NCBI RefSeq assembly: GCF_041886205.1
Contig: NZ_CP169029.1
Length of the DNA stretch: 64,000 bases
From: Escherichia coli
Lineage (GTDB): Bacteria; Pseudomonadota; Gammaproteobacteria; Enterobacterales; Enterobacteriaceae
Reading direction: 5' to 3' (one strand)
Below the pieces are notes generated by a model. That model did not search any database. It was not told the origin of the DNA and saw nothing but the letters and a program-made list of their open reading frames with translations. Positions 14,957 to 55,757 of the stretch are shown here, piece after piece (position 1 is the stretch's first letter; each line of letters begins with the position of its first letter). The translations under genes were made by a program, and so were the position numbers.

Positions 14957-15256
14957 ATGACAAAAACAGTATCAACCAGTAAAAAACCCCGTAAACAGCA
15001 TTCGCCTGAATTTCGCAGTGAAGCCCTGAAGCTTGCTGAACGCATCGGTGTTACTGCCGCAGCCCGTGAACTCAGCCTGTATGAATCACAGCTCTACAAC
15101 TGGCGCAGTAAACAGCAAAATCAGCAGACGTCTTCTGAACGTGAACTGGAGATGTCTACCGAGATTGCACGTCTCAAACGCCAGCTGGCAGAACGGGATG
15201 AAGAGCTGGCTATCCTCCAAAAGGCCGCGACATACTTCGCGAAGCGCCTGAAATGA
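14957..15256 (+). CDS. insE: IS3 OrfA (InsE)
   Basis: Translation [32 protein letters not shown]... matches my recollection of IS3 InsE. Confidence 0.85.
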
Positions 15257-16119: not shown

Positions 16120-16248
16120 GCCTGTGTCCATATTACGTGGGTAGGATCAATAAGCATATCCAGAGGTGGTGTACAAGCCAGAGTAAAACGTGAGTTTTAT
16201 TTGGTAAAATCGTAAGCGCCCTTTGTAGAGCGTAGTGTAAGCAGGGGT

Positions 16249-22875: not shown

Positions 22876-22884
22876 GTCACCTCC

Positions 22885-23811
22885 TCAGATAAGCCCGGCG
22901 TCGCGCGCCAGGCGGCTCAGATTGTTATATCCCAGACGGGCGTAGGTCAGCGGATGGGCGATCGCCGGGTCCTGTTCAGCCTCCACCACCAGCCAACCGT
23001 GATAATCCTGCGTTTTCAGCAGTTGCATAATCGGCGGATAATCCACGCAGCCGTCACCCGGCACGGTAAACACGCCGCTCAGCACCGCGTCGAGGAAGCT
23101 GGTTTTACGGTTTTTGACGTCCGCCAGCACGTCGGCGCGCACATCTTTGCAGTGAACATGATTGATGCGCGATGCCCATCGCTGTGCCACCGCCAACGGA
23201 TCGGCCCCGGCAAAGGTCAGGTGGCCGGTATCCAGCAGTAAACCAACCTCCTCACCCGTGTGGAGCATCAGGTTGTCCACGTCTTGAGCGGACTCAATCA
23301 CCGTGCCCATATGATGGTGGTAAGCAATCTGTACCCCCTGTTGCTGCGTATAGCGGGCGAACACGGTGAGCTTCTCACCATACTCTTTCCAGCATTCCTG
23401 CGGGAAACGTGGGCGCAGGTGAACCGGCGTCTGCTGCTCACCGTGAATGCAGCCACTCACTTCCGCAAAAACCAGTACTTTTGCACCCAGCTCTCGCAGC
23501 AGCGTCAGATGCGACTGCACAGCAGCAATCTCGTCCTCTACACTGCGTTCCAACAGGCGGCCGGAATACCAGCCGGAGACCAACTGCAGGTCGTGGCGCT
23601 GCAAAATGGGGCCGAGCAGGCGCGCTTCTCGCGGGAATTTATTGCCCAGTTCGAAGCCGGCAAAACCGGCCTCTTTCCCTTCACTCAGGCAGGTCTCCAG
23701 AGATGTCTCCGCGCCCAGTGAAGGCAGATCATCGTTCGTCCACGTCAGCGGGTTGATGCCCAGTTGTACACTCATTGTCGTCTCCATTATGCGTGTCCGC
23801 GCTCGCGCCAC
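22885..23811 (-). CDS. iolE: Inosose dehydratase IolE (likely start MSVQLG at 23775)
   Basis: Xylose-isomerase-like TIM barrel; sequence GINPLTWTNDD typical of IolE. Confidence 0.8.
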   Translation of the reverse strand: MARARTRIMETTMSVQLGINPLTWTNDDLPSLGAETSLETCLSEGKEAGFAGFELGNKFPREARLLGPILQRHDLQLVSGWYSGRLLERSVEDEIAAVQSHLTLLRELGAKVLVFAEVSGCIHGEQQTPVHLRPRFPQECWKEYGEKLTVFARYTQQQGVQIAYHHHMGTVIESAQDVDNLMLHTGEEVGLLLDTGHLTFAGADPLAVAQRWASRINHVHCKDVRADVLADVKNRKTSFLDAVLSGVFTVPGDGCVDYPPIMQLLKTQDYHGWLVVEAEQDPAIAHPLTYARLGYNNLSRLARDAGLI

Positions 23812-25691: not shown

Positions 25692-25703
25692 GTTGAACCC
25701 TCT

Positions 25704-26837
25704 TCAGACAATGTCATTCACGTTCAGCCAGAGGCCCTGCTGGTGTGAGAGTGCGATGGCATCCAGCACACGCGAGACCTTCCAGCCCTCTTCGAAGTCC
25801 GGCCACATCGGTGCGTCGGTGGCGATGCCGTCTACCAGATCACGCACTTCCACCGTTTTTTGATCGTTAAAGCCGATACCATGACCTGCGCCCATGCAAA
25901 ACGCGCCGTAATCCGGGTGTGCCGGACCGACCAACAGTGTCCGGAACCCCTGACGGTTCACCGGATCATCATGCAGATAGAGCTTTATCTCTGCCATCCG
26001 CTCTTGGGTAAAACTGATCGCTCCTTTGGTACCAGTAATGACGTATGACAGCCCCATCTTGCGGCCGCAGGCGACACGGGAAGTTTCAATGACGCCCTGC
26101 GCCCCGCCCGCAAAGCGCACCATCGCGTGGGCCTGATCTTCATTTTCCACGGTGACCATTTCCGACGATCCGGCCTTTGCCGGACGTGCCGGTACCACAA
26201 TTTTCAGATCGCCACAAACCTGCTCAATCTCTCCCACAAGATACTGGGCCATATTGACGATATGTGCCGCCAGGTCACCCAGAGCCCCCAGTCCGGCGGT
26301 CTCTTTAAAACAGTGCCAGTGAATAGGGGAAAGCGGGTCGGCCATATAGTCTTCGTTGTGGGTTCCGTAGAAGTGGATCACCTCACCAATTTCGCCGCGC
26401 GCAATAATCTCTTTCGCCAACTGTGCCGTCGGGTTTTTCATGTAATTGAAACCCACCAGCGTTTTCACCCCTGCCCGCTTCGCAGCGTCGACCATCTCAC
26501 GCGCGTCGTGGGCATTCAGTGCCAGCGGCTTTTCCGAATAGACGTGCTTGCCGTGGCGGATCGCCTCCAGCGCCATCTCTTTGTGAAGATGGTTAGGGGA
26601 GCAAATATCCACCACATCAATGGCCGGGTCGACCACGAGCACCCGCCAGTCTCCGGTTGAGCGATTGAAGCCAAACGCCTGCGCGCGTTCTGCCGCCAGC
26701 GCCGGATTCACCTCAGCCACCATCTCGCGCACCAGTTTGCCGCGCAGATTGAACACCGTCGGTGCCTGGGCATAGGCAATGGCATGCGCCTTGCCAATAT
26801 ACCCGGTGCCAATCAATCCAATACGAACCTCTTTCAT
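25704..26837 (-). CDS. Gfo/Idh/MocA-family oxidoreductase (second inositol dehydrogenase-like enzyme)
   Basis: Rossmann motif IGLIGTGYIGKAH; ~377 aa from MKEVRIG. Confidence 0.75.
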   Translation of the reverse strand: MKEVRIGLIGTGYIGKAHAIAYAQAPTVFNLRGKLVREMVAEVNPALAAERAQAFGFNRSTGDWRVLVVDPAIDVVDICSPNHLHKEMALEAIRHGKHVYSEKPLALNAHDAREMVDAAKRAGVKTLVGFNYMKNPTAQLAKEIIARGEIGEVIHFYGTHNEDYMADPLSPIHWHCFKETAGLGALGDLAAHIVNMAQYLVGEIEQVCGDLKIVVPARPAKAGSSEMVTVENEDQAHAMVRFAGGAQGVIETSRVACGRKMGLSYVITGTKGAISFTQERMAEIKLYLHDDPVNRQGFRTLLVGPAHPDYGAFCMGAGHGIGFNDQKTVEVRDLVDGIATDAPMWPDFEEGWKVSRVLDAIALSHQQGLWLNVNDIV

Positions 26838-26845
26838 CGTGATCC

Positions 26846-27874
26846 TCACAGTGCGCCGCGACGGCTCTTGGCATAGGTGTCGAATGCCACCGCCAGAACG
26901 ATAATTAATCCGGTGATAATTTGCTGGTAGTAGGCCGAGACGTTCATCAGTACCAGGCCATTAATCAGAATGCCCATGATGATGGAGCCGATGATAGTGC
27001 CGCCGATGCGCCCATATCCCCCCATCAACGACGTGCCGCCAATAACCACCGAGGCAATAACACGCAGCTCAAAGGAGATCCCGGCAACCGCCTCAGCGCT
27101 CCCCAGACGAGCGCTCAGGATGAAGCCCGCCAGCCCCGCCAGACAGCCAATCAGCACATAGACGCTAACCAGCACACGCTTCACGTTTACCCCAGCCAGA
27201 CGTGCCGCCTCCGGGTTGCCACCGATGGCATAGACGAAGCGCCCCCAACGGGTTTTATGCAGTGCCAGATAACCACCAATGGCAACGATGGCGAAGATCC
27301 AGATCGGAATGGAGATGCCGAGCAATTCCCCTCGTCCCCACCAGCGATAACCCTGATCGAAGCCGGCAATCGGCGCACCGTCGTTAATCACGAGCGTCAG
27401 ACCACGCCAGATGGTCATCCCGCCAAGGGTGACGATGAACGGTGGTAGGCGCAGGCGGGTGACGCCCAGACCGTGCAGGAAGCCAATCGCTGTACCCATG
27501 GTCAGACAAATCCCCAGCCCAATCAGCCAGCTCATACCGCCCCAAGCGTTCGGATCGACTGTGGTGAAATTGTCGCCTTTGATCACGTACGCCGCTGTCA
27601 TGGCGCACACTGCCAGAATAGAGCCCACGGAGAGGTCGATCCCAGCGGTCAGAATGACGAAGGTCATCCCCACGGCCATGATCCCGTAGATGGAGACTTC
27701 GGTCAGGATGTTGAAAATATTGCGTTCAGAGAAAAAATTACTGTTCTGCGACTGAAAGAAGATCAGCAGCAGGATCATGAAAATCAGTACCCCGAAGCGC
27801 TCGAAGAAGGCAATGGGATCGATGCGTCCGGCGCGTTTTACCGGGACCTGCGTTTTAGGAATCATCTGCGTCAT
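26846..27874 (-). CDS. Sugar ABC transporter permease (ribose/monosaccharide type)
   Basis: 342 aa, multiple hydrophobic segments, start overlaps upstream gene. Confidence 0.8.
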   Translation of the reverse strand: MTQMIPKTQVPVKRAGRIDPIAFFERFGVLIFMILLLIFFQSQNSNFFSERNIFNILTEVSIYGIMAVGMTFVILTAGIDLSVGSILAVCAMTAAYVIKGDNFTTVDPNAWGGMSWLIGLGICLTMGTAIGFLHGLGVTRLRLPPFIVTLGGMTIWRGLTLVINDGAPIAGFDQGYRWWGRGELLGISIPIWIFAIVAIGGYLALHKTRWGRFVYAIGGNPEAARLAGVNVKRVLVSVYVLIGCLAGLAGFILSARLGSAEAVAGISFELRVIASVVIGGTSLMGGYGRIGGTIIGSIIMGILINGLVLMNVSAYYQQIITGLIIVLAVAFDTYAKSRRGAL

Positions 27875-27885
27875 GAGAAACTCCG

Positions 27886-29433
27886 TTATGCCGCGTTCAG
27901 GGCGTTGTGGTTGATAGCCATCATCGTCATCAGCCGTTCTTCGTTAGCGTCGTCACCGTGGATCTCGCCAGTTAACCGGCCTTCACTAAGGGTGATGATC
28001 CGGTCAGACACCGCCATCACTTCAGGCAGATCGGAGGAGATCACGATCACCGCCACGCCCTTTTTCGCCATATCAAACAGCACCTGGTGCACTTCCGATT
28101 TGGTTCCAACGTCGATGCCACGTGTCGGCTCATCGACAATCAACACCCGTGGATTGAGCGCCATGCAGCGCGCGAGGATAACTTTCTGCTGGTTGCCGCC
28201 AGAGAGCTTACGCACCTCCTGCGTGCTGTTGACCATTTTGATCTGCAGCGCCTGGCGGTAGGACTCAATCAGGTCGTCCTCTTTGCGGGTATTCACAAAC
28301 CAGCGCCACTGCAACAGCGAGGAGAGGCAGGAGAGCGACAGGTTGTCGCGAATCGACAGACCCAGCACCGCCCCCTCTTTTTTGCGATCTTCCGGCACCA
28401 GCGCCAGCCCTTGCTCCAGCGCATAAAGTGGGTCACGCGGCTGGTACGGCACGCCGTCCAGCTCAAAGCTGCCGGTGGTAAAGGCGTCGGCGCCAAACAG
28501 GCAGCGCGCTACCTCAGTACGACCAGCCCCCACCAGCCCAGCGATACCCAGAACTTCCCCTGCATGGACGTGAAAACTGATGTCATGCAGGGCGATGCCG
28601 TGTGGATCCAGCGGCGGTTTTTCCCGGCTTAACCCCTTCACCGACAAACGGACAGGTTTGTCTTCATGGTGGGTTTCGCTGGCAGGGCGGCGGTTAAAGG
28701 CCACATCACGCCCTACCATCAGGCGGATCAACTGCTCTACGTTCGTCTCCGTCACTGCGCCGGTGCCGGTGAAACGGCCATCCTGGAAAACGGTGAAACG
28801 ATCGCAAAGCTGGAAAACTTCATGCAGACGGTGAGTAACGTAAATAATGCTCACGCCGCGGTTTTTAAGCTCCCGCACCACGCGGTGCAGGCTTTCCACC
28901 TCGCTGTCACTCAGGGCGGCGGAGGGTTCATCCATGATGATCAGCCTGGCATTGAGGGTCAGCGCCCGGGCAATCTCCACCATCTGCTGCTGGGCCACGC
29001 TCAGACGGGCGACTGGCGTGGTGGGTGCGACATTCAGTTGCAGATAATCGAGAATCACCTGCGCTTCCTGATTGACCGCTTTTTCGTCGACGATCAGGTT
29101 ACGTTTACGCGGTTCGCGTCCGAGAAACATGTTTTCCGCAACGGTCATATTGGGCAGCAGGTTGAATTCCTGATAGATGGTGATAATGCCCTTGTTCTGC
29201 CGTTCTACCGGGGAGTCGTCCACCGGCAGCGTTTCGCCATTGAACCAGATCTCCCCGCGCGTTTGTGGCTGTGCGCCCGCGAGTGCCTTCAACAGCGTGG
29301 ATTTCCCAGCGCCGTTTTCGCCCAGCAAAGCGTGAATTTCACCCGTGCCGACGGTGAGCTGGGCGCTGCTCAGCGCCCATACGCCGGAAAAGCTTTTTGC
29401 CAGGTCGGTTACTTTCAGTAAGGGTTGCGACAT
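27886..29433 (-). CDS. Sugar ABC transporter ATP-binding protein (duplicated ABC domains)
   Basis: 515 aa; Walker A GENGAGKST, signature LSGGNQQK. Confidence 0.85.
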   Translation of the reverse strand: MSQPLLKVTDLAKSFSGVWALSSAQLTVGTGEIHALLGENGAGKSTLLKALAGAQPQTRGEIWFNGETLPVDDSPVERQNKGIITIYQEFNLLPNMTVAENMFLGREPRKRNLIVDEKAVNQEAQVILDYLQLNVAPTTPVARLSVAQQQMVEIARALTLNARLIIMDEPSAALSDSEVESLHRVVRELKNRGVSIIYVTHRLHEVFQLCDRFTVFQDGRFTGTGAVTETNVEQLIRLMVGRDVAFNRRPASETHHEDKPVRLSVKGLSREKPPLDPHGIALHDISFHVHAGEVLGIAGLVGAGRTEVARCLFGADAFTTGSFELDGVPYQPRDPLYALEQGLALVPEDRKKEGAVLGLSIRDNLSLSCLSSLLQWRWFVNTRKEDDLIESYRQALQIKMVNSTQEVRKLSGGNQQKVILARCMALNPRVLIVDEPTRGIDVGTKSEVHQVLFDMAKKGVAVIVISSDLPEVMAVSDRIITLSEGRLTGEIHGDDANEERLMTMMAINHNALNAA

Positions 29434-29484
29434 CAGCCTGCTCCTTATTTATGGGGAGCCGCCCGTACGGCGGCTCCAGACAAA

Positions 29485-30414
29485 TCAGTTACCGGCCTCA
29501 GCAATACGCTCAGCCTGTTGCAGGTTCTCTTTGGTGATCAGCGTCGGCGGATAGTCCGCACCGGTGATAGTTTTTTTCTCACGCACGTTAGCCACCAGTT
29601 GGCTCATCGCCGTGGTCACCGCAAAGCCGGGACGCTGATCCGCCGTAACCGCCAGCCAGCCGTCGCGCACGCGGGCCAGTGCTTCCGGTACCGCATCAAA
29701 ACCGGTGACCAGGATTTCACCCGGTTTCACACCCTGACTCTGCAGCGCTTCAATCGCCCCCAGCGCCATATCATCGTTGGCAGAGAGGATCACCTGAGGA
29801 CGTTTTGGCAGCGACGGCAAAACGCTTTCGACAATGCGCATCCCTTCCGAGCGCATCCAGTTGCCGGTCTGATCGGCGACGATCTTGTACATATCCCCGC
29901 CAGCCTTCAGGCTGTCGCGGATCCCTTTGGTGCGTTCAATGTTGGAGGAGGAACCCGGTTGACCGGTCAACAGAATGATCTCCGCGCCGTTGGGGAATTT
30001 GGTTTTGACGAAGTCGCCAATCGCCTGGCCGCCCTTGTAGTTGTTGGCACCAAAGTGCGGCACTTTTTTCTGGCTGTCGACAGAGCGGTCAAGCGTAACG
30101 ACCGGCAGCTTCGTATCCTGAATTTCATCTACCGCACTGGAGACCGCGTTCACATCGTTCGGGGAGACAATAAAGCCCTGCGCACCACGGGTGATGGCGT
30201 TTTCCAGGTCAGCCACCTGCTTCGGTGAGCTGCCCTGACCGTCCAGTACCTGAAGTTTCACCCCCATCTCTTTTGCGGCTTTCACCGCCGTGCGCTGCAT
30301 GTGAACTTCAAACGGCATGGCCAGGTTTGGCGTACTGAAAACAATTTGCTCGTTTTCGGCTATGGCGGCCCCGGATGTCATGGCGATTAGGGCGGCTAAG
30401 ATCAGTTTTTTCAT
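29485..30414 (-). CDS. Periplasmic sugar-binding protein of the ABC importer (putative inositol-binding)
   Basis: Signal peptide MKKLILAALIAMTSGAAIA; ATG at 30412-30414; the longer upstream ORF extension is rejected. Confidence 0.8.
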   Translation of the reverse strand: MKKLILAALIAMTSGAAIAENEQIVFSTPNLAMPFEVHMQRTAVKAAKEMGVKLQVLDGQGSSPKQVADLENAITRGAQGFIVSPNDVNAVSSAVDEIQDTKLPVVTLDRSVDSQKKVPHFGANNYKGGQAIGDFVKTKFPNGAEIILLTGQPGSSSNIERTKGIRDSLKAGGDMYKIVADQTGNWMRSEGMRIVESVLPSLPKRPQVILSANDDMALGAIEALQSQGVKPGEILVTGFDAVPEALARVRDGWLAVTADQRPGFAVTTAMSQLVANVREKKTITGADYPPTLITKENLQQAERIAEAGN

Positions 30415-30445
30415 TATTATGTCTCTCTGTGTAGGGTTGTTGTGT

Positions 30446-31432
30446 TTAGAGGACGATCTCACGCTGGCAACGCAGTGATTCCAGCGCTTTATCCGCGAGG
30501 TACAGCGCACGTTCACCATCATCGCCGCTGCAATCAGGCACCGCTTCGCCGCGCAGAACCGCAACAAAGTGCTCCCATTCCGCTGCGTAAGCGGATTTGT
30601 AGCGTTGCAGGAAGAAGTGTTCCGGCAGCGCGCTGGTGCAACCCTGTTTGCCGTAGTGCTGCACCTGGTTTTCAAGGATATTGCCCGCGCACAGCAGCCC
30701 TTCGGAACCGTGTAGCTCCAGGCGCTGGTCGTAGCCGTATGAAGAGCGGCGACTGTTGACGATGGTCGCCATCGCGCCGGAGGCATATTTCAGAACGATA
30801 AATGCGGTGTCGATATCTCCCGCTTCGCCAATCGCCGGATCCACCAGATTGCTGCCCTGGGCATACACCGACACCGGCTCTTCACCCATGATGAAGCGTG
30901 CCATGTCAAAGTCGTGGATGGTCATATCACGGAACATGCCGCCGGAAACACGCACGTACACCGCAGGCGGTGGAGACGGATCGCGGGAGATGATCAGCAG
31001 TGATTCCGGTTTGCCGATACGCCCGGCCTGAGTGTCGGTTTTCACGCGACGGAACTGTGGGTCAAAGCGGCGGTTAAAACCGATAAACAGCGGTACGTCA
31101 TACTCTTTGACCACTTTCAGGCAGTCGCGTACGCGGGCAAGATCAAGGTGTACCGGTTTTTCACAGAAAATGGCTTTGCCGTAACGGGCGGCCATTTCAA
31201 TCAGATCCGCGTGGGTGTCGGTCGCGGAGGCGATCAATACGGCATGAACGTTCGGGTCGGTCATCGCCTCATCCAGGCTCTGCTGGCGCGCCTGATACTG
31301 TGTCGCGAGACGCGTGGCGAACTCCTGATTCGGGTCTACCACAGACCAGAGCGTGGTCGCACTATGGCTGGCGATGTTAGCTGCATGTACCTGGCCAATT
31401 CGGCCAGCGCCCAGTAAAGCAATGTTAAACAT
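30446..31432 (-). CDS. iolG: myo-Inositol 2-dehydrogenase IolG (Gfo/Idh/MocA family)
   Basis: 328 aa; N-terminal Rossmann motif ALLGAGRIGQVHA. Confidence 0.8.
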   Translation of the reverse strand: MFNIALLGAGRIGQVHAANIASHSATTLWSVVDPNQEFATRLATQYQARQQSLDEAMTDPNVHAVLIASATDTHADLIEMAARYGKAIFCEKPVHLDLARVRDCLKVVKEYDVPLFIGFNRRFDPQFRRVKTDTQAGRIGKPESLLIISRDPSPPPAVYVRVSGGMFRDMTIHDFDMARFIMGEEPVSVYAQGSNLVDPAIGEAGDIDTAFIVLKYASGAMATIVNSRRSSYGYDQRLELHGSEGLLCAGNILENQVQHYGKQGCTSALPEHFFLQRYKSAYAAEWEHFVAVLRGEAVPDCSGDDGERALYLADKALESLRCQREIVL

Positions 31433-31626
31433 AACGGCTCCCGGTGTTGATGAATGCGGTGAACTAACGACACTACAAATAAAACATTTATTTCATTTTT
31501 ATAAATAGTGAAAATTATATTTTGAGTGACAGTTAACACTTTTGAGATGTATTAGATAAATTTTGTTATCAATCTCACAACGCCGAGGAAGATATGTCCC
31601 TCCATTACAAGGGGGGGAGGGAATAA

Positions 31627-31656
31627 AAACTGTACCATCCCCTCTCCCGTTGGGAG
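31627..31656 (-). terminator. Perfect 14-bp-stem palindrome, probable terminator after iolD
   Basis: CCATCCCCTCTCCC-GTT-GGGAGAGGGGATGG; T-rich run follows on the minus strand. Confidence 0.5.
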
Positions 31657-31716
31657 AGGGGATGGGTGAGAGGAAAAAAGAAAAATGAAATGAAAATTTC
31701 GTTACGACAGGAAAAC

Positions 31717-33642
31717 TCAATACTGACGAGCTTTTTTCACCTGAGCCTGTGTTTGCTCGGCGGCCTGGCGCACTGCTGGCGACTCTGCCACCTGTGCGTT
31801 GCCGGTTCGCCACCATGACGCGTAATCATGGGTCATGGTTTTTGGTAGCACTTTGATGTCGAGGAGCGTCGGTCCCGGGTGAGCGCGCGAGGCTTCCAGC
31901 GCCGCCAGCAGGCTTTTCTCATTATGTACCCGCCATGCGCGGCAACCGTAGCTTTCCGCGTTTTGCGCAAAATCGACCTTCACCAACGGCCCGTCAAGCT
32001 GACCTGTTTTCGGATTACGGTAACGATTTTCTGTGCCAAAACTCCCCATTCCGTGCCCCATCTGCAGGTTATTAATGCAGCCAAAGCTGGCGTTATCAAA
32101 CAGCAGAATGGTGACCTTAATTCCCTCCTGTACGGCAGTTTGCAGCTCTGAGTGCAGCATCATGTACGAACCATCGCCTACCATGGCATACACCGGCTGC
32201 TGAGGTTTTGCCAGCTTCGCACCAATAGCCGCTGCGACCTCATACCCCATGCAGGAGTAACCATACTCCAGATGGTAACTGTCAGGCGTTTTAACCTGCC
32301 AGAGGCGTTGCAAATCCCCTGGCAGCGATCCGGCCGCCCCCACCACAATGGCGTTATCCTCAATATGCTGGTTAATGAGCCCCAACACCCGCGTCTGGGT
32401 CAGGTGTGTGTTGAGCGTTTCACCGTATTCCATTAGCTGTGCATCAAGGTGCCCTGCCACTTCGGGAACGTCGTCAGGATGCCACTGGCGTTCCCACAGT
32501 CGACAGCATTCATCGTGCCAAGCGGATTTCGCATGGGCAATCGCCTCCCCCCAGCCACTACGATAATCTTTCAGTGCGTGGGTCAACGCTGTCAGACCAG
32601 TTCGGGCATCGGCAATGAGCGCGGTGGCATCCAGCTTCAAGGAGTCAAACTCAGCCACGTTCAGCAGCAGGAACTCGACGTCGGGATGAGAAAAGAGCGC
32701 CTTAGAGCCGGTAGTAAAATCCGTCAGGCGCGTGCCGATGCCAATCACTAAGTCAGCCTGCGGCGCAAGCTGGTTGGCAGCCATTCCGCCCGTCACGCCC
32801 ACCCCGCCCAGATTAAGCGGGTGGTCACTTACCAGCGCCCCCTTACCGGCCTGGGTTTCGGCAAACGGCAATTGCAGCACTTCAACAAATTCCCGTAACG
32901 CCTCATGCGCACCGGAGTAACGCACGCCACCGCCGCACACCACCAGTGGACGGCGCTTGCGGGAAATCAATGCATGAGCCTGCGCCAGTCGCTGCGGGTC
33001 AGGCGGACGGCGTTCAATATGATGCACCCGACGCGCAAAGAAACTCAGGGGGTAATCCCAGGCCTCCCCCTGCACATCCTGAGGTAGGCAAATGGTCACC
33101 GCCCCTGTATTTGCGGGGTCAGTAAGCGTTCGCATCGCACTTAACATCGCGCTCATAAGCTGTTCAGGACGGTTGATGCGGTCCCAGTAGCGGGAAACCG
33201 GGCGGAAGCAATCGTTGGTACTGATGCTGAGATCGTGATACTGCTCGATCTGCTGCAACACGGGGTCAGGCTGGCGGCAGGCGTAGATATCCCCTGGCAG
33301 TAGCAGCAGTGGAATGCGGTTCGCCGTGGCCGTCGCTGCCGCCGTCACCATATTGGCAGCGCCAGGCCCAACGGATGAGGTGACAGCAAAAATACGCTGA
33401 CGGCGATGCTGTTTGGCGAATCCCGTCGCCATATGGGCAATCCCCTGCTCGTTACAGCCTTGCATCACCTGCAGATGACCAGGATCCTGCTCCAGCGCCT
33501 GGCCGATACCGAGCACGTTACCGTGCCCAAAGATCGTTGCCACGCCCTCCACAAAGGGCGTTTCTTTACCATCAACGCTAACATATTGTTGGTTAAGAAA
33601 TCTGACCAGAGCCTGGGCCATAGTCATACGTTCGGTTTGCAT
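31717..33642 (-). CDS. iolD: 3D-(3,5/4)-trihydroxycyclohexane-1,2-dione hydrolase IolD (TPP-dependent)
   Basis: 641 aa; thiamine-diphosphate enzyme motifs (GDGSYMM). Confidence 0.85.
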
Positions 33643-33653
33643 AAAACCCCCTG

Positions 33654-35159
33654 TCAGCCCAGAGTCGGCATGGAGAACGCTGCACCTGTCTCCTGCTGCA
33701 TTTCCGGCCAGCGTGCAGTGATGGTTTTCATTCGGGTGTAGAAACGCACGCCATCGTTCCCGTGAACATTGAGCGCGCCAAAAATGGAACGTTTCCAGCC
33801 ACCGAAACAGTGGAATGCCATTGGCACCGGGATCGGCACGTTGACCCCCACCATACCCGCCTGCACCTCTTCACAAAAGCGGCGTGCGCAGCCACCGTCA
33901 CGGGTGAAAATGGCCGAGCCATTACCATATTCGTGTCGGTTAATCAGATCCACCGCGCTGGCGTAATCTGCTACGCGCACCACAGAAAGCACCGGTCCGA
34001 AAATTTCTTCTTTATAGATGGTCATCTCCGGGGTGACGTTATCGAACAGAGTCGGCCCAACGAAATAGCCCTGCTCGTGCCCTTTCACGCTGAGGCCACG
34101 CCCGTCCACACGCAGGTTAGCCCCCTGAGCTTCGCCACTGTCGATATAGCCCAACACTTTGCTGCGGTGTGCGGCGGAGATCAGCGGCCCCATCTCGTTT
34201 TCTGGCGTCTGGTTCAGGCCAGGTCCGACGCGCAGCGAAGCGATCTTTTTTTCCAGCCGGGCGCAGAGTTCATCAGCCGTTTTATCGCCAACCGCCACCA
34301 CCACGGAAAGCGCCATGCAGCGTTCTCCTGCCGCACCATAAGCTGCGCCCATTATGGCGTTTGTCGCCATATCCATATCGGCATCCGGCATTAAAATGCA
34401 GTGGTTTTTCGCACCGCCGAGCGCCTGACAGCGCTTACCGTGGGCGGACGCAGTCAGGTACATGTATTCGGCAATCGGTGTTGAACCGACAAAACTGACG
34501 GCCTGCACGCGCGGGTCGGTCAGGAGCACATCAACGGATTCTTTATCGCCCTGCACCACGTTGAATACGCCGTCCGGCAGGCCTGCCTCTTTCAGCAGTT
34601 TCGCCAGCGCGAGCGCCAGAGACGGATCTTTTTCCGACGGTTTCAGCACGAAGGTGTTGCCTGTCGCCAGAGCTATCGGGAACATCCACATTGGCACCAT
34701 CGCCGGGAAGTTAAACGGCGTGATCCCGGCGCAGACCCCGAGCGGCTGCATCAGTGAGTGGCTGTCGACACCTGTGCCAACGTTCGCAGAGTGTTCGCCT
34801 TTTTGCAGATGTGGGATGCCGCAGGCGAATTCTACCACTTCCAGACCACGGGTCAGTTCACCTACTGCATCTGAGAAGACCTTACCGTGTTCTTCACTGA
34901 TAATACGGGCCAGACGCACCATATTCTCTTCAAGCAACGCTTTGAAGCGGAACATCACACGCGCGCGCTTGAGTGGAGCAAAACGTGCCCACGCGGGAAA
35001 CGCCAACTGTGCTGCGGCAATCGCCTGTTCGGTTTCCTGTGCCGTACTCATCACCACCTGGCGAATCTGCTCGCCAGTGGCCGGGTTGAAGATAGCCTGA
35101 ATGCGCTGGCCTGAACCGGTGACACATTCGCCGTGAATAAAATTCGCTACCGTCTCCAT
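33654..35159 (-). CDS. iolA: Methylmalonate-semialdehyde dehydrogenase IolA/MmsA
   Basis: 501 aa aldehyde dehydrogenase with catalytic Cys context and FTGST-like motif. Confidence 0.85.
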
Positions 35160-35449
35160 CCTTAACCTCTCGCTGTTGATACGTGACTGTTACCTGAACG
35201 TTATGTACTGAACACTATATATGAAACAAATATTCCATTTTAAGTTGAAATAAAATAAATAATGATTATTGTGATCAAGGATGGATTTTTATGTGAACAG
35301 CCAGCATCACTGACTCAGCCTGAGCTATTAGGAGTTTCGGGCGAGGAAATGACTGAAGCTTCTGTTTCATTTTTGCTGCCAGGTGGATGGCCAACATTTA
35401 AAAGACGCGGTTTTGCGTTTAGAATCATGAGACTGGATAGGGGGATAAC

Positions 35450-36310
35450 ATGACGACAGCAACCAGCCTGAACGAACTACAAAAGCAAATCCGCGATCGC
35501 TACGATAGCCTGAGCAAAAGGCTGCAGCAGGTCTCCCGCTATGTACTGGATAATACGAACAGTGTCGCGTTTGATACGGTTGCGGTCATAGCCGAACGTG
35601 CCGATGTTCCACCCTCTACACTGATTCGTTTTGCCAATGCCTTTGACTTCACCGGCTTCAACGAAATGAAACAGTTATTTCGTATGCACCTGGTGGAGGA
35701 AACCGCCAGCTACAGCGATCGTGCGCGACTGTTCCGCGAAATGGAGAGCGAAGCCGTACCTGAAACGCCGCTCGATATTTTGCAGGAGTTCGCCAGTTCG
35801 AACTCGCAGGCGCTGCAGCAGTTGGCTGCCCGCGCCGAACCGGAGATGCTGGAGCACGCCGTACAACTACTGGCCTACGCCGACACCATTTACATCGCCG
35901 GATTACGCAGATCCTTTAGCATTGCTGCTTATCTTACCTATGCTTTAAGCCACCTAGAGTGCCGCCCTATTCTGCTTGACGGGATGGGCGGCATGCTGCG
36001 CGAACAGATCAGCCGTATTAAGGCGTGCGACATTGTGGTGTCGATCAGTTTCTCGCCGTACGCGGAAGAAACGGTGATGGTCAGCAAAACCGCCGCCAGC
36101 GTCGGCGCTCGGCAGATTGTGATTACGGATAGCCAGATCAGCCCACTGGCAACGTTCAGTGATCTCTGCTTTGTGGTGAAAGAGGCTCAGGTGGACGCAT
36201 TTCGGTCTCAGTCGGCAACATTGTGTCTGGTGCAGTCGTTAGTGGTCGCGCTAGCTTACCGTTTAGGAGATAAAAAACATAATAATACCCAGGAAAACAG
36301 TAACCAATAA
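35450..36310 (+). CDS. iolR: RpiR/MurR-family transcriptional regulator IolR (HTH + SIS domain)
   Basis: 286 aa; divergent from iolA. Confidence 0.75.
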   Translation: MTTATSLNELQKQIRDRYDSLSKRLQQVSRYVLDNTNSVAFDTVAVIAERADVPPSTLIRFANAFDFTGFNEMKQLFRMHLVEETASYSDRARLFREMESEAVPETPLDILQEFASSNSQALQQLAARAEPEMLEHAVQLLAYADTIYIAGLRRSFSIAAYLTYALSHLECRPILLDGMGGMLREQISRIKACDIVVSISFSPYAEETVMVSKTAASVGARQIVITDSQISPLATFSDLCFVVKEAQVDAFRSQSATLCLVQSLVVALAYRLGDKKHNNTQENSNQ

Positions 36311-43693: not shown

Positions 43694-45511
43694 ATGTATA
43701 ATTTTATCACTATAATGTATGATGTCTTTTCATGTTTTGGTGTTCTGGCTAAAAACCAGAATACCCGTGACATCCGAAATATTAAAAATTTTTCCTCACA
43801 TCAATATTCACTGGGCGACATGTTTGATGAATTAATAAACATTATTGATAAAGAACAAGTATTGAGTACAGAACAACGAAAAGTTATATTTAGGAGATAT
43901 GAAGATCTCTATGTTAAGCTAATGCACTATTCTGTTTTTACAGACCAAACACATCAAATAATAAAACAAAAATATTTTAATGACATTGTACCAATGATTC
44001 TCGCACTCGACATCAGGAACACATATCGCCCGGATAATGAGATGGCATTTTACTATCATATTCATTCTTTTCTCACTCAGATACCGGATAATGAGGATGA
44101 TATATATCATGCTGCAAGGACATATCTGCGAAATTACGTTAAGTTATGTTTATCCGGATACACACCAGCGAATGCGCATTTCAAAGATATCTTTGATGGC
44201 GTATATGAATTCATTCGTAATATTCGCAAAAACAGTACACCAGGAAAAACAAAACTTATCGCAACTATCAACACATGCAAAGAAACCTGTAAACATCTGC
44301 TTTATTTAAGTAATGAAGACAAGGAAAAAATAATTTCTGACTTAGATAAAGTTCAGGTTGCATGTTATTATCTCACTATATTACTGGCTTTCGAAAGACG
44401 AACTTCATTAACAAGCACCCTGGCAACTTTATATAAAATGCTGATAAGCGAAAGAGAAGTTTCAGAATATGAATGCCAGTTATTATATTTAACCAACCCA
44501 ATAGATGTAATGAATATACTGAACAAATACATATATTACTTTCCTAATGAAAACTCACCATTTTATACACTGAAAATTGACAGTGCATTATCGTGGGATG
44601 CCATTGACGCAATACGAGACTATAGTATTTCTGATATTTATCTTTATCCTGAACAAAAAACAATAAATTGTGTCGTTGAGATTGAAAACATTGTCTTTGG
44701 CGGTTACATTTATACATTGAACAACGGCGTCACATTACAAAACATAGAAAACACTTTAAAAGATTCTTCATGCCATTATGTCTTAAATGGCTATACAGAA
44801 TTTGTTAACTGTTTGATACAACTTACTTCAGGAAAGACTGAAAGTGTTCATCGCACCATCAATAAACTGAACTATGAGAAATTACCTTTTGGATTTATCA
44901 TTGCCGCGTTTGCTATACTAAAGATAGCATTTAAAATAAAATTCAGTAAAAATCATGTAAATATCCGAGCATTATTAAATGACATCAATTATTTTATGAC
45001 TTATCAGGGCGAGTCCATTAACCTTATTTCACTGGATCACGAATACCCAGAGTCCTGTCTTCAAAATGACACAAACACATATTTATTAGGAAGAGTAATA
45101 TTTCTGTATAACTCAATGATTTATAAGTTCATAAACTGTCAGGAACATGAAACCAATAACATTCACTCAGCTATGATAAATAACCTATTACAGGAAGTTG
45201 ATATAGCCCTTGGTAAAATAAATAACATTATAGACAGCAGAAACATATCAGCCCCCCATGAACTGGCAAATATTCTTACCCGCGAAAAAATACTTACAAC
45301 ACGGGAAAAAAAAGGAAACCTGATAAGCCTGTTTGATGGATTCACTTTATTCCATTGTGTTGGAATGATAACCTTTCTTATCCATTATCTCAGAACACCT
45401 GAAGAAAAAGTTGAAAATATATTTATGTTATATGGTGCAGATAAAAACAATAAACTACGCAGAAGACTGATTTATGACGCACTAGGAATAATTCAGTCTC
45501 AGCAGGAGTGA
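43694..45511 (+). CDS. Hypothetical protein, 605 aa, AT-rich orphan in the int-alpA variable slot
   Basis: Long uninterrupted ORF; very low GC versus flanks; no motif I can recognise. Confidence 0.5.
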   Translation: MYNFITIMYDVFSCFGVLAKNQNTRDIRNIKNFSSHQYSLGDMFDELINIIDKEQVLSTEQRKVIFRRYEDLYVKLMHYSVFTDQTHQIIKQKYFNDIVPMILALDIRNTYRPDNEMAFYYHIHSFLTQIPDNEDDIYHAARTYLRNYVKLCLSGYTPANAHFKDIFDGVYEFIRNIRKNSTPGKTKLIATINTCKETCKHLLYLSNEDKEKIISDLDKVQVACYYLTILLAFERRTSLTSTLATLYKMLISEREVSEYECQLLYLTNPIDVMNILNKYIYYFPNENSPFYTLKIDSALSWDAIDAIRDYSISDIYLYPEQKTINCVVEIENIVFGGYIYTLNNGVTLQNIENTLKDSSCHYVLNGYTEFVNCLIQLTSGKTESVHRTINKLNYEKLPFGFIIAAFAILKIAFKIKFSKNHVNIRALLNDINYFMTYQGESINLISLDHEYPESCLQNDTNTYLLGRVIFLYNSMIYKFINCQEHETNNIHSAMINNLLQEVDIALGKINNIIDSRNISAPHELANILTREKILTTREKKGNLISLFDGFTLFHCVGMITFLIHYLRTPEEKVENIFMLYGADKNNKLRRRLIYDALGIIQSQQE

Positions 45512-45698: not shown

Positions 45699-46901
45699 TT
45701 ATTTATTCACAATTTGAGACATCACATAATCCGCCCATGCCTGCATCATCGGTACACGCTGCTCCAGTAGATCAGTACGATGATATGCCGCCTCAACCTT
45801 ATTTTTCAGCGTATGAGCGAGCGCCCTTTCCGCCAGATCCCGCGAATACCCCTGTTCACTACACCAGTCCCTGAATGTTGAGCGAAAACCATGTGCCGTG
45901 GCAACTCGCCCCGGAATGTCACTGACGGCTTTCTTTTTACGCAGAAAACTTGTCAACACCATATCGGAAAGGATCTGCTGCTTTCTGGGTGAAGGGAACA
46001 CCAGTTCATCATGCAGGCCACGTATATTTTCCAGAATGTAAATAGCCTGCCGGGATAAAGGAACACGATGCTGTAGCCTGGCTTTCATTCTTTCTGCAGG
46101 TATAGTCCATACCCGCTTATGAAAATCAATTTCAGCCCAGCGCATTCCCCTGGCTTCGCCCGAGCGAGTTGCTGTAAGTATCACCATTAATAACAGTGCG
46201 CGGGTAACATTATAAGGTTCATCACTATACACACTGGTCGCCACAAAAAGCGGTAACTGCCTCCAGGGCATTGCTGGTTGGTGTTCATCACGTCCTCTTG
46301 TCTGCTGAGGAAGCAAATGGTCAACCACATCAACAGGATTTGCCACACAAAAACCGTGCGCCCATCCCCACTGCATAACAACATGAATGCGCTGTTTAAC
46401 CCGGCTTGCCGTTTCTGACAAGGTTAACCAGACTGGACGCAGTGTTTCTGCCACGTCCGCAGCCGTAATCGAATCCAGCGTTTTTGCTCCCAGTTGAGGA
46501 AACGCGTAATTCTCAAGCGTCGATAACCACTGCCTTACATGCTTTGGATTTTCCCATCCTGGAGACAATTCTGCATGTACACGCCTGGCTGCATCGGCAA
46601 ATGTTGGGATAACGACTTTCTCAGATTCAGCCTTTTTAATCTCCAGAGGATCATCACCTGCAGCAAGTTGCTCTCGCATTATCCGGGCAGTACGTGCAGC
46701 TTCAGCAATACTGACCTCTGGGTAAGTTCCCAATCCAGCATTACGTCTTTTTTGTGTCACCGGACTTACATAACGAAAAACCCATTTCCCCCGCCCCTTT
46801 ACTGAAGAAGGATGAAGGGTCAGTCCGGTAATTCCCCCATGGGGCAATGGTTTGTCATCAGGTTTGATATGTCTTGCTTTCGTATCCGTCAATACTGCCA
46901 T
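45699..46901 (-). CDS. int: Tyrosine integrase, P4/CP4-57 type
   Basis: 400 aa; N-terminal MAVLTDTKARHIKPDDKPLPHGG... and C-terminal catalytic region (HGFRSTFRDW...LAH...Y). Confidence 0.85.
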   Translation of the reverse strand: MAVLTDTKARHIKPDDKPLPHGGITGLTLHPSSVKGRGKWVFRYVSPVTQKRRNAGLGTYPEVSIAEAARTARIMREQLAAGDDPLEIKKAESEKVVIPTFADAARRVHAELSPGWENPKHVRQWLSTLENYAFPQLGAKTLDSITAADVAETLRPVWLTLSETASRVKQRIHVVMQWGWAHGFCVANPVDVVDHLLPQQTRGRDEHQPAMPWRQLPLFVATSVYSDEPYNVTRALLLMVILTATRSGEARGMRWAEIDFHKRVWTIPAERMKARLQHRVPLSRQAIYILENIRGLHDELVFPSPRKQQILSDMVLTSFLRKKKAVSDIPGRVATAHGFRSTFRDWCSEQGYSRDLAERALAHTLKNKVEAAYHRTDLLEQRVPMMQAWADYVMSQIVNK

Positions 46902-47061: not shown

Positions 47062-47522
47062 CCCCCTCACCGCCATATTTAAAGAAGAGCTCGTACGAAA
47101 GTACGGGCTTTTTTTTCGTATATTGCACACACCGGGGGGATGAGAATCCCCGACCGGGGGTCGACAACTGGCGGCAGCCAGTTGGACAGACCGTGAACGC
47201 AGTGAGCGGGCTGCCCGCAGGGCGAGCGAAGCGAGTCAATCCCCCCCTCACCGCCATATTTAAAGAAGAGCTCGTACGAAAGTACGGGCTTTTTTTTTCG
47301 TATATTGCACACACCGGGGGGATGAGAATCCCCGACCGGGGGTCGACAACTGGCGACAGCCAGTTGGACAGACCGTGAACGCAGTGAGCGGGCTGCCCGC
47401 AGGGCGAGCGAAGCGAGTCAATCCCCCCCTCACCGCCATATTTAAAGAAGAGCTCGTACGAAAGTACGGGCTTTTTTTCGTGTATTGCACACACCGGGGG
47501 GATGAGAATCCCCGACCGGGAT
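47062..47522 (+). repeat. Tandem ~180-bp repeats (about 2.6 copies), each beginning with a tRNA-Ser(GGA)-like 3'-end copy (attachment core)
   Basis: Unit starts at about 47062, 47243 and 47424; copies 2 and 3 carry AATCCCCCCCTCACCGCCA; each unit also contains a hairpin plus T-run (GCTCGTACGAAAGTACGGGCTTTTTTT) and further stem-loops. Confidence 0.7.
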
Positions 47523-47528
47523 ACTTAG

Positions 47529-48215
47529 TTAATGCAACGGTTCACTCTTTGTCGCCGCGACTAATGGGCGAATTTTGTCACGAGTCTCCCAGACCGGAGG
47601 GATTTCCTCCAATTTAGTGACAGAAGCTCGTACAAAAGGCACTCGTGCAAGAGTCATAATCGTATCCAACCAACGGTCACGAATAATGCGATCCGCCCTT
47701 TCATGACTCGGGTCATCCAGCTCAATAACACAGACTATTTTATTGTTCTTCTTTGAAACCAGAACATAATCCATTGCCATGCCATTATAAATTGCAAAGA
47801 AACGCTTTCTTTCTTCTTCGCTAAACTCAGGTTGTTCTGGATAGTTGAGCAAGCGCCCCAGAGAGACCTGGCAATGGATATGACAATAATGTCCAAACCA
47901 TTTCTCCAGATTATCGAAATACATTTTTTCACAACGCGTGATTAACCACTCTTTTCCTTCCAATAAAATACCTTCGGCAACCATTCCCTGAAATAACTCA
48001 TCTCGTTCTTGCCAACGAGAGTCACGATAGGTTTTCTGCGGTATATAGGTCCTTGTCGACGACTTAGCAGCAGGGGAAGTTGCAGATGAAGGGACTGGTT
48101 GCGATTTAGCGATGATTACCGATGAGGCAACTTTTCGGAGTGTCAATTTTCTGGCAACAGCAAAACCGGCGACAAATGCAATTGTCAAACAAGTTACAAA
48201 AGCCATAAAGCTCAT
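47529..48215 (-). CDS. DUF2726-like membrane-anchored protein (restriction-endonuclease-like fold)
   Basis: 228 aa; N-terminal TM helix; C-terminal motif KIVCVIELDDPSHERADRIIRDRWLD. Confidence 0.45.
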   Translation of the reverse strand: MSFMAFVTCLTIAFVAGFAVARKLTLRKVASSVIIAKSQPVPSSATSPAAKSSTRTYIPQKTYRDSRWQERDELFQGMVAEGILLEGKEWLITRCEKMYFDNLEKWFGHYCHIHCQVSLGRLLNYPEQPEFSEEERKRFFAIYNGMAMDYVLVSKKNNKIVCVIELDDPSHERADRIIRDRWLDTIMTLARVPFVRASVTKLEEIPPVWETRDKIRPLVAATKSEPLH

Positions 48216-48766
48216 AATTAATTTTCACTTATCCATGTTGATTATATTTCATTACCAATGTTACTCGCTGAAGCGTGTTACATGCCAACAATGCAACGAT
48301 CAATATATAGTTAGTATCATGTTTTGATTATTACAACCATCCCTATTTTGCCATTGCAGCTTGCCTTCCACAAAAAAAATAACAACAAACAATATTAGCC
48401 AAAGAATTAATTAAGATTAACCTTGCATTTATAATATTATCCCTAAAGAATAAATCAGAGGAATATATTCGGTGTTAATCAGTCAGTCAAATTATGGCCC
48501 ATTGTTGATTAAACCTCATAAGCAAAATTGGCACCAGATCTCCTGTACAGGTTGAATGGCCGAAAAAAGATAGGCAGATGCTCGCTTTTTTGGCTTCTGG
48601 AAGAAAAACTCTCCGCACTGGCAGTATTACACTGGTCTGATGCTATGACGAAAAATGCCTGGTAAGAGTATCTAAACCAGACTCCAGTTCAGCTTATCAA
48701 CACGCTCAAAGTCGCCCCCCTGAACGCTAACCTGAAGTTAAAGTCTTTGCTGTTAATGAAATAAAA

Positions 48767-50413: not shown

Positions 50414-51685
50414 TTAAACCCGCAATAACGCGCTTCCGAGATAATCATTCGCGTCCTTCACTCCCGGCAGCGCAAAAAAATAACCGCCGCCGATGGGTTT
50501 AACGTATTCCTCCAGCGCTTCGCCATTGAGCCTTTTTTGTACTGTCAGGAAGCCTTTTTCCAGATCGTGTTGGTAGCAGACAAACAGTAGCCCCATATCC
50601 AGTTGCCCGGAGTTGGTGACGCCCAGTGAATAACTGTAGCCACGACGCAGCATCAGGCTGGACTCACTCTCCGCCGTACGGGGATTCGCCAGCCGGATAT
50701 GGCTGTCCAGCGCGATCACCTTCCCTTCAGGGTCGCTGGCGTAATCAGGCACATCATGCTCATGCTGCATTCCCAGCGGCGCACCGGTTTGCTTATCACG
50801 GCCAAAAATCGTCTGCTGTTCTTTCAGCGGCGTTCTGTCCCAAAATTCCACTCGAAACTGAATCAAGCGTACTGCCTGATAGCTGCCACCAATTGTCCAC
50901 GCAGGCTCCTGCTGATCTGCCGTTACCCACACCACTTTTTGCATCAACTTATCATTCTGGCTATCGGGATTGGCAGTGCCGTCTTTGAAACCCAGCAAAT
51001 TAATCGGCGTCTCTTTGCCTTTACTACGCGCTGCGTGATCGGAAATAAACCCTTCCCGCTTCCAGCGCACACTGAGCAAATCCGGCGTGTGTTTGATGAT
51101 ATCGCGCAGCGCATGGATCACCGTGTCCTGGGTGTTGGCGCAAATTTGTAGCAACACATCACCATGACATAACGCCGCATCCAGCGAGTCGTTGGGGAAA
51201 CGCGTCATCTTCTGCAACTTTTTCGGCATCTGTGGCGCAAGGCCAAACCGCTCATCAAACAATGAGTGGCCCACCGATAACGTTATGGTGAGATTATCGG
51301 GCGCAATGTAGCCGCCAAGAATGCCGGAATCGAGTGGTGGCAGGCGCGGATTTGGCGTTTCTGGTGCCGCTCCGCCCTGAGTCAGAAAAGCAAAACGCTG
51401 AGTCAACAAGCGAAACAACCGTTCAAGATCGGCTTTATCGCTGGCAAGCACATCAAACGCCACCAGCATCATTGCGGCCTGTTGTGGCGTCAGGATCCCT
51501 GCCTGATGCTCACCATAAAACGGCTGTTTCTCATTGCGTGCATCCGGTGAAAGCGTGCCCGGTGCACTTTGCGTTTTTTGTGCATGAACGACCGGACAAC
51601 TTCCCGCCAGCGCCAGCGCACCAATCCCTTTCAGTAAACGTCGGCGTGACGGTTCATTCACGCCGTTTTCATCTTCATACTGCAT
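50414..51685 (-). CDS. efeB: Dye-decolorizing (Dyp-type) peroxidase EfeB, Tat-secreted
   Basis: 423 aa; twin-arginine signal [16 protein letters not shown]. Confidence 0.9.
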
Positions 51686-51690: not shown

Positions 51691-52818
51691 TTAATCCAGT
51701 CCCAGCACACCGCGAAGTTGCGCCAGATCTTCCGCCAGCGCAGTAATCGGTCCTTTCAGTGCATTCCGGTCGGCATCGGTCAATTTGTCGTAGGTTTCAA
51801 AACCGTCTTTAGTACGGTATTTCGCCAGAATGGTATCGACCTTTTTAAAGTTGGCATCGACTTTTGCCAGCAGTTCCGGGTTGGCTTTTTGCAGTTGTGG
51901 ACGCAGCAAATCGACAATTTTCTGCGAGCCTTCAACGTTAGCCTGGAAATCCCACAGATCGGTGTGGCTGTAGCGATCTTCTTCACCGCTAATTTTGCTG
52001 GCTGCCACTTCCTCAATCAGTCCGGCTGCGCCGCCGACCACTTTTGAAGGTGGGAAAGCCAGTTCACTGATGCGTTTTTGCAAATCGACCACATCTGTAT
52101 AAAGCTGCTCAGCGTACTGATCCATCCCTTTGGTGGTGTTGTCGCCAAACAATGCTTTTTCCAGACGGTGGAAACCAGTGAATTTTGGGTCGGCGGCTTT
52201 TTGCTCGTAATCATCTTCACGGGCGTCAATGCTGCCATCCAGATCGGAGAACAGTTCAGCAATCGGTTCAATGCGCTCATAGTGCTGGCGCGTCGGCGCA
52301 TACAGTGCTTTCGCTTTTTCGATATCGCCAGCTTTAATCGCGTCGGTAAAGGCTTTGGTGTCGGTCACCAGCTGCGTGGTTTCCGCCATGACATACGCTT
52401 TATATGCAGTAATTGCACCACCAAGACTTAACAGCGCATCACTTTGCGCCGCATCCGCCGTTGCCTCACCTTTGACGATCAACTTCCCTTTCGGGTTAGT
52501 CAGCAGACCGCAGGTCATATCGTATTCGCCAGGCTGTAAATTCGCCGTCATTTTCTGGCTAAAACCAGGGGCGATATTTTCCCGCTCTTCCACCACCATC
52601 ACGCCTTTGAGGATCTCCCACTCCAGCGCCTTCTGGCTATGGTTCTGAATAATGAACTGTGTTTTCCCGGCGTTAACCGTAATGGTCATCGGTTCGCACT
52701 GCTTATCCGTCACGGTCACTTTGACCTGCGGCACATCAGCGGCGTTAGCCATAAAAGCAGAAGAAAACAGCGCAGCCACGCTCAACTGCAATGCGTTACG
52801 GCGGAAGTTAATGGTCAT
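51691..52818 (-). CDS. efeO: Iron uptake system component EfeO
   Basis: 375 aa; signal peptide; cupredoxin/M75 region; synteny. Confidence 0.9.
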
Positions 52819-52875: not shown

Positions 52876-53715
52876 TTACGCGGAGCGAGACGCTGTCGCC
52901 CCTGCGCGTGGTGGCAGAGCAAATGCCACCAGCGCCGGGATGAGATAAATAAACCAGACGGCGACTTCGCTGACGCTCGGCGCTTCCTGATAGCCAAAAA
53001 TCCCTTCCATCAGCGTGCCAAACAGCGAGTGAGTTGAGAGCACCGCACTCATATCGAAGGCGATTTCCTGAAAGTGGTTCCACAATCCGGCTTCATGAAA
53101 TGCGCGAATGGCACCAGCTGCCAGCCCTGCGGCGACGAAGAGAATAAACAGGCTGGTCCATTTAAAAAATGCACCAAGATTGAGGCGAATACCGCCCCAG
53201 TAGAGCAGGAAGCCTAGCACCACGGCAGTAGCAAGACCGAGCATTGCACCCAGCGGCGGCCAGATCCCGACATCTTGTTGAAATGCCGCCAGCAGGAAAA
53301 AGACCGACTCCAGCCCTTCCCTTGCAACGGCAAAAAAGACCATCATCACCAGCGCCCAGCCATGATGATTTCCACGCTGCAATGCGCTATCGACTGCCTG
53401 TTCCAGTTGCACTTTGACGTTGCGCGACACTTTGCGCATCCAGAAAACCATCCAGGTAAGGATCACCACGGCGATCACCGCCACGATACCTTCAAACAGT
53501 TCCTGTTCTTTTTGCGGAAATTCGCCGGTGGTTTCGTTAATGAAGATACCCAAGCCCAGGCACAACGCAGCGGCAAGCAACACGCCAATCCACATCACAC
53601 CAATCCATCGGCCTCGCTGGGTACGCTTAAGATAGCTGGCAATCAAACTGACAATCAGCGCGGCTTCAAGTCCTTCGCGCAACATAATGAGAAACGGAAC
53701 AAACATGCCACCCAC
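52876..53715 (-). CDS. efeU: Ferrous iron permease EfeU (FTR1 family), apparently intact
   Basis: 279 aa; REGLE-type motifs (REGLEAALIV and REGLESVFF). Confidence 0.85.
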   Translation of the reverse strand: MGGMFVPFLIMLREGLEAALIVSLIASYLKRTQRGRWIGVMWIGVLLAAALCLGLGIFINETTGEFPQKEQELFEGIVAVIAVVILTWMVFWMRKVSRNVKVQLEQAVDSALQRGNHHGWALVMMVFFAVAREGLESVFFLLAAFQQDVGIWPPLGAMLGLATAVVLGFLLYWGGIRLNLGAFFKWTSLFILFVAAGLAAGAIRAFHEAGLWNHFQEIAFDMSAVLSTHSLFGTLMEGIFGYQEAPSVSEVAVWFIYLIPALVAFALPPRAGATASRSA

Positions 53716-53763
53716 CCTTAAACGTTTTTCTGAGTCAATCTATGCAAAGAAAAGTAAATCGCA

Positions 53764-53783
53764 GTGATAGCGATTATCATTAC
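53764..53783 (-). promoter_or_regulatory. Putative Fur box upstream of efeU
   Basis: GTGATAGCGATTATCATTAC resembles the GATAATGATAATCATTATC consensus. Confidence 0.4.
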
Positions 53784-53915
53784 GGCAAAGAAAAACACAA
53801 GCGGAATGTTTATAAAATGATGTTGGAATGTAAACAAAGAGAGGTAATGCCAGGGGATATAAACGATTATTCCAGGGTAGAAAGATGGGATTGTTTGCAA
53901 AGAACCATGTGTTCT

Positions 53916-53955
53916 TGCCGGATGCCGCGTAAACGCCATATCCAGCCGACAAAAC
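53916..53955. repeat. REP element between efeU and putP
   Basis: GCCGGATGCCGCGTAAACGCCATATCCAGCC. Confidence 0.6.
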
Positions 53956-54248
53956 TGTCCAGACTCAATGCATCAGAGCTTCCATGTAAAACTGATAAGC
54001 GGGTGTATCAAGCAATTTCGTCCATCCGCGATTATCAAATCTAACTTTTTGCCCGGAACATAATAACAGCTCGGGTGTTGGTGGCGTCAAAATCGCTGAA
54101 GCGTTCCCCTAAGGCCGGGACAGCAGGGGGCGGCGGCGATTGGCCGCCCCCTGCGCGCTCCCTGCACCATTCAATTTATATGGCGAGGCACATTAAGGGA
54201 GCGCAACCCGCTGCTGAAGCCAAACAAAACCGCCGCAGGCTAAGTCCC

Positions 54249-55757
<1,509 letters not shown>

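Follow-up and report, generated by a model that had tools for sequence, protein, structure and literature searches.

Does the efeU gene in this stretch of Escherichia coli DNA encode a complete iron permease, as in strains with a functional EfeUOB system, or is it the cryptic allele of K-12? Expression of efeUOB is induced by acid and repressed by Fur and by CpxAR. The system is described as functional in O157:H7 by Cao et al. 2007, as cited in passages of PMC3577903; literature statements call it cryptic in K-12, and further secondary statements on EfeUOB are found in sections of PMC2808357, PMC7549933, PMC4746246 and PMC9174327. The stretch analysed here, referred to as the window, comprises 64,000 nucleotides of contig NZ_CP169029.1. 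We find that its efeU gene is intact, and we put at about 0.9 the probability that the locus is an ordinary wild-type E. coli efeUOB operon with an undamaged efeU. The features on which this reading is based, and those of the surrounding DNA, are collected in Table 1.

Table 1. Position, strand and properties of the features discussed, numbered along the window
Feature	Position	Strand	Properties
efeU CDS	52876..53706	minus	ATG at 53706; 276 aa plus stop; inner-membrane Ftr1-type iron permease
In-frame codons GTG GGT GGC	53707..53715	minus	Ahead of the RefSeq ATG
First REGLE (REXXE) motif	53665..53679	minus	Residues 10-14, hydrophobic segment 1; from translation and motif search
GG of codon Gly36 (GGT)	53600..53601	minus	Only variable column of 840
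Second REGLE (REXXE) motif	53308..53322	minus	Residues 129-133, hydrophobic segment 4; from translation and motif search
efeO	51691..52818	minus	375 aa, periplasmic; Pfam Cupredoxin_1 and Peptidase_M75 (imelysin/M75); NCBIfam EfeO 1-375/375
efeB	50414..51685	minus	423 aa; DyP-type haem peroxidase/deferrochelatase; Pfam Dyp_perox_N and Dyp_perox_C
putP-efeU intergenic region	53707..54248	minus	542 bp, the K-12 length; putative efeUOB promoter/regulatory region
Candidate Fur-box-like site CGTAATGATAATCGCTATC	53766..53784	minus	15/19 consensus matches; 60-78 nt upstream of ATG; identical in K-12
Tyrosine integrase	45699..46901	minus	400 aa, with arm-binding, central and catalytic domains; sits at the island end
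DUF2726 gene	47529..48215	minus	228 aa; occupies the pga-dgcT-ycdU position
605-aa ORF	43694..45511	plus	Beside the integrase; 32% G+C against 50% for the whole window

The efeU reading frame

An open frame of 279 codons, counted from a GTG, occupies positions 52876..53715 of the minus strand and has no internal stop in the list of open reading frames. The earlier note, made from the letters and that list, had called efeU intact on the strength of this frame; the frame is indeed there and open from the GTG, but the gene lies on the minus strand and is better placed three codons shorter, with the likely start at the ATG. DNA of the window between 52700 and 53950 is 100% identical to that of E. 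coli O19:H7 strain 730V1, and in that identical DNA RefSeq annotates efeU as a CDS of 831 nt and 276 aa whose ATG is three codons downstream of the GTG; 276 aa is also the length of EfeU given in a passage of PMC9174327. Translation from the GTG at 53715 to yield 279 aa is very unlikely. That codon shares the frame, and no other start codon comes between it and the upstream stop, but RefSeq and the literature agree on 276 aa, and the purine-rich AAGGGTGGG directly adjoins the GTG, whereas it stands 5-13 nt before the ATG, a normal spacing. Moreover, matches to the family models set in only between residues 3 and 8 of the 279-aa frame (the Pfam match at residue 4). The three additional codons probably belong to the ribosome-binding region (AAGGGTGGGTGGC-ATG) and not to the coding part of the gene.

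The protein matches Pfam PF03239 FTR1 over positions 1-283 of a profile of 284 (E = 1.9e-89; 300 bits, cut-off 25.3), TIGR00145 with 353 bits (cut-off 303.8) and the NCBIfam EfeU equivalog NF041756 with 331 bits (cut-off 255). Given that the FTR1 and EfeU equivalog matches extend over the full length, the efeU frame is not a chance ORF. A Pfam MFS_1 match of 27.2 bits was below its cut-off of 33.4 and was put down to the hydrophobicity that membrane proteins share. Both of the REGLE-type motifs that had been read from the letters are present (Table 1). By a Kyte-Doolittle estimate of topology in 19-residue windows, six segments score 1.6 or more (roughly residues 4-24, 32-60, 68-94, 146-173, 177-204 and 242-266), and a seventh, residues 119-137, which holds the second REGLE, scores 1.59. 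EfeU is thereby predicted to have seven hydrophobic segments with REXXE in segments 1 and 4, as in the Ftr1 (OFeT) family. A sequence search with EfeU against all PDB chains gave zero matches at E ≤ 0.01; judged by sequence similarity alone, the permease family is without a solved structure in the PDB copy searched.

The K-12 frameshift at codon 36

In a three-way alignment of efeU from the window, from MG1655 and from 730V1, 1 of 840 columns varies, and it falls on the GG of codon Gly36. Where the window reads ATTGGTGTG, K-12 reads ATTGTGTG, one G fewer; at every other aligned base K-12 b4490 is the same as the window, and the two loci share their putP and efeO flanks. The consequences for the protein differ widely. 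Translated from its ATG, K-12 efeU ends in ...RGRWIV* after 36 residues, with the other 240 residues in another frame, whereas window efeU reads on to 276 aa. In accordance, b4490 of MG1655 is annotated as a pseudogene of 830 nt and efeU of the K-12-type strain Origami2-DE3 as 'frameshifted', and a single-base difference in codon 36 agrees with what is stated in PMC3577903 where that article deals with efeU. Loss of a single G in codon 36 is the frameshift that inactivates K-12 efeU. Because the window retains both G residues at a site where K-12 has one, its efeU is not the cryptic allele.

The comparison with K-12 bears on three statements of the earlier note. The alignment with K-12 efeU reveals neither a masked frameshift nor a premature stop in the window, and the one-G deletion that characterises the K-12 pseudogene is missing from it. 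That K-12 efeU is a frameshifted pseudogene is confirmed by both annotations, and that EfeUOB is non-functional in K-12 agrees with statements in PMC3577903, which call the system cryptic in that strain.

Distribution of the two alleles in E. coli

How common is each allele? Of 5,426 complete E. coli genomes, 5,417 hold the efeU locus, and these were typed with short queries so designed that any 28-base seed word had to include the codon-36 site. The K-12 deletion, with a single G, was found by a 31-mer query in 367 genomes (6.8% of those that hold the locus). The undeleted GG was found by a 32-mer query in 3,926 genomes in the version of the window, and by a second 32-mer, taken from FDAARGOS_1303 and carrying the synonymous GTA, in 1,023. 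As these two queries differ at their central base they cannot cross-seed, so that the two sets of genomes are disjoint; the undeleted site is thus present in at least 4,949 genomes, 91% of the locus-holders, a figure that concerns the codon-36 site only and not inactivating mutations elsewhere in efeU. Around 101 genomes carry other variants within the typed 32 bases, among them strain N96, which has an efeU annotated as intact. Among the 60 matches listed for the deletion allele, the overwhelming majority are K-12 laboratory strains (MG1655, W3110, DH10B, MC4100, TOP10, JM83, XL1-Blue, O16:H48 colonisation isolates and transconjugants). C43(DE3), a derivative of the B strain, has the intact allele.

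An intact efeU is the norm of the species and no distinguishing mark of the window strain. EfeUOB is complete here as it is in most E. coli, and the finding matters little beyond annotation; what it does mean is that iron-uptake phenotypes of K-12, in which EfeUOB is cryptic, should not be transferred to the window strain. Intact efeU has already been described in the literature, and the small value added here lies in the match of the window allele, one G apart, to that of K-12 and in the census, which puts numbers to a textbook remark on K-12 efeU. Because window efeU equals that of K-12 but for the G, and the deletion occurs almost only in K-12 laboratory derivatives among the complete genomes listed, we lean towards the view that K-12 efeU descends directly from the window allele, by a frameshift that is very recent, confined to the K-12 lineage and not in circulation in natural populations.

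The efeUOB operon and its upstream region

Downstream of efeU follow efeO and then efeB, both full length and on the same strand, with gaps of 57 nt and 5 nt; upstream, the neighbours are putP and putA, the same as in K-12. The gene order is that of the O157:H7 system (EfeUOB, also YcdNOB; Cao et al. 2007), and the proteins are very close to it. Family models cover each of the three proteins from end to end, with scores above their curated cut-offs. Window EfeU is residue for residue identical to O157:H7 EfeU WP_000497942.1. EfeO has one substitution relative to O157:H7 (E237D) and is identical to that of K-12. EfeB carries three substitutions relative to O157:H7 (E6K, V33A and D48V), none of them beyond residue 48; against K-12 the count is four, and over three reference strains the range is 3-5. 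EfeB matches the equivalog TIGR01412 ('tat_substr_1') end to end with 617 bits (cut-off 428), and its NCBIfam label is 'deferrochelatase/peroxidase subunit'. Its N-terminus, read from the translation, contains the twin-arginine (Tat) signal SRRRLLKG, by which export is predicted.

The spacer between putP and efeU departs from that of K-12 at 3 bases, which lie 147, 232 and 404 nt ahead of the efeU ATG. O157:H7 differs from both: in strain PV15-279 an extra hypothetical gene of 1.3 kb, absent from the window and from K-12, lies between putP and efeU (L006:1385-2728), and the upstream context of efeU is therefore different in O157:H7 from that in the window strain, whose spacer is of the K-12 type. 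When the window was searched from end to end for the 19-bp Fur-box consensus with at most 3 mismatches, no site was found. The closest Fur-like sequence upstream of efeU departs from the consensus at 4 positions and is therefore listed as a candidate only. A scan for consensus sigma-70 promoters between 50200 and 54300 found none; it is uninformative, because the promoter region of K-12 is nearly identical. Indeed, the weak results of the promoter and Fur scans apply equally to K-12, since the two upstream regions part at 3 distal positions only. Terminator-like matches numbered 11, all within the efe genes or the efeU upstream region, against a chance expectation of 5.4, and were not deemed meaningful.

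Probable function and alternative explanations

What would the operon do? As in O157:H7 and in Nissle 1917, EfeU, EfeO and EfeB may together take up ferrous iron at low pH independently of siderophores. EfeU is an inner-membrane permease of the Ftr1/OFeT type, with seven predicted segments; if yeast Ftr1p is a guide, the REGLE motifs of its segments 1 and 4 would carry iron across the membrane. EfeO is a periplasmic cupredoxin and M75 protein, and EfeB a DyP haem peroxidase with predicted export by the Tat pathway. K-12 lost this system when a single G dropped out of codon 36, a base that the window retains. The earlier note's interpretation, that a working and acid-induced uptake system for ferrous iron is likely in this strain, is supported. 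Iron transport by EfeU is expected from its 100% identity to the O157:H7 protein reported as functional, and acid induction and control by Fur and CpxAR are what the near-identity to the characterised K-12 region, together with the literature, leads us to predict for the window operon.

Several known systems resemble this locus. Besides the O157:H7 operon, the EfeU system of Nissle 1917 (Grosse et al. 2006) is a close one, likened here by description. The yeast Ftr1p/Fet3p pair (OFeT) has in common with EfeU the FTR1 Pfam family and two REXXE motifs in transmembrane segments; the similarity of EfeU to Ftr1p in sequence is only about 25%, as given in a passage of PMC3577903, and the partners differ, the yeast permease working with the multicopper ferroxidase Fet3p and EfeU with EfeO (cupredoxin/M75) and EfeB (DyP peroxidase). 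The Gram-positive systems YwbLMN of B. subtilis and FepABC of S. aureus are distant orthologues, likened by description as well, which according to statements in PMC3577903 share the three-part make-up and are encoded by Fur-repressed operons.

Is ferrous iron the main substrate? The alternative is that the system serves mainly to extract iron from haem in the periplasm, with EfeB as deferrochelatase and EfeU as importer, and that uptake of free Fe(II) is secondary or additional. The statements of PMC3577903 on O157:H7 point in this direction: EfeUOB with a complete efeU pulls iron from haem in the periplasm, and EfeB frees the iron while the tetrapyrrole is left intact. The NCBIfam label of EfeB agrees with it. 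Uptake of Fe(II) by EfeU in acidic medium has, however, been shown independently, as stated in papers that cite this work, PMC3577903 among them. The two roles are not mutually exclusive and the sequence does not discriminate between them; we regard haem iron as the main role as a tentative possibility, on the doubtful side.

A different concern is whether the frame, although intact, belongs to a system that is idle by a defect elsewhere, be it in the substituted residues of EfeB, in altered regulation or in damage beyond the window, for instance to the Tat pathway. EfeB does depart from O157:H7 at three positions, and the upstream region from K-12 at three, but EfeU is the O157:H7 protein and EfeO the K-12 protein, the changes in EfeB are confined to its first 48 residues in a protein that matches its equivalog end to end, and those upstream lie 147 nt or more away from the ATG. 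With no sequence feature in its favour, such a defect is unlikely. That the integrity of efeU is itself an artefact of sequencing or assembly, an extra G called in a strain that has the K-12 allele, is barely credible. A one-base indel is a type of error that sequencing can make, but the site is only a GG dinucleotide and no long homopolymer, the GG recurs in the 4,949 independent complete genomes, and the window does not come from a K-12 derivative: its flanks share 98.4% identity with those of K-12, and it has a different genomic island and no pgaABCD at the K-12 position. A K-12 derivative in which the frameshift has reverted was likewise rejected, given 223 mismatches in these flanks and the different content of neighbouring genes. 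An ordinary wild-type operon with an undamaged efeU is accordingly the reading that we retain.

Genomic surroundings

The window is collinear with K-12 only from 48763 to 64000, that is, from phoH to the rut operon. Positions 1 to about 47500 are occupied by a genomic island that is rich in mobile elements and not collinear with K-12; its insertion sequences include an IS3 copy at 14891..16150 and, by the annotation of matching genomes, elements of the IS66 and IS110 families. No complete E. coli genome holds at least 80% of window positions 1-24000 in one place, and a single one, the bovine strain ZYB62, does so for positions 24001-49000. Within the island, at about 22000..36300, there is a cluster for myo-inositol catabolism with 99.7% identity to the annotated region of ZYB62. 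By that annotation it comprises iolB, iolE, a kinase/aldolase gene, iolG and iolD, and also a methylmalonate-semialdehyde dehydrogenase, a sugar ABC transporter and a MurR/RpiR regulator. Carriers of the cluster are mostly cattle-derived among the matches listed.

At the end of the island marked by the tyrosine integrase, positions 47062..47520 match the K-12 repeat region 1097120-1097578, which abuts the tRNA gene serX, in several matches that overlap with offsets of about 181 bp. ARAGORN found no tRNA genes in the window, and serX itself is therefore probably situated past the opposite end of the island. In K-12 and in ZYB62, pgaABCD (for the biofilm polysaccharide PNAG), dgcT and ycdU are situated between serX and phoH; these genes are absent from the corresponding window position, 47520..48763, where the DUF2726 gene is found. 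The 605-aa ORF next to the integrase, low in G+C, matches no Pfam family; at the equivalent site ZYB62 encodes a hypothetical protein. This ORF is likely foreign cargo.
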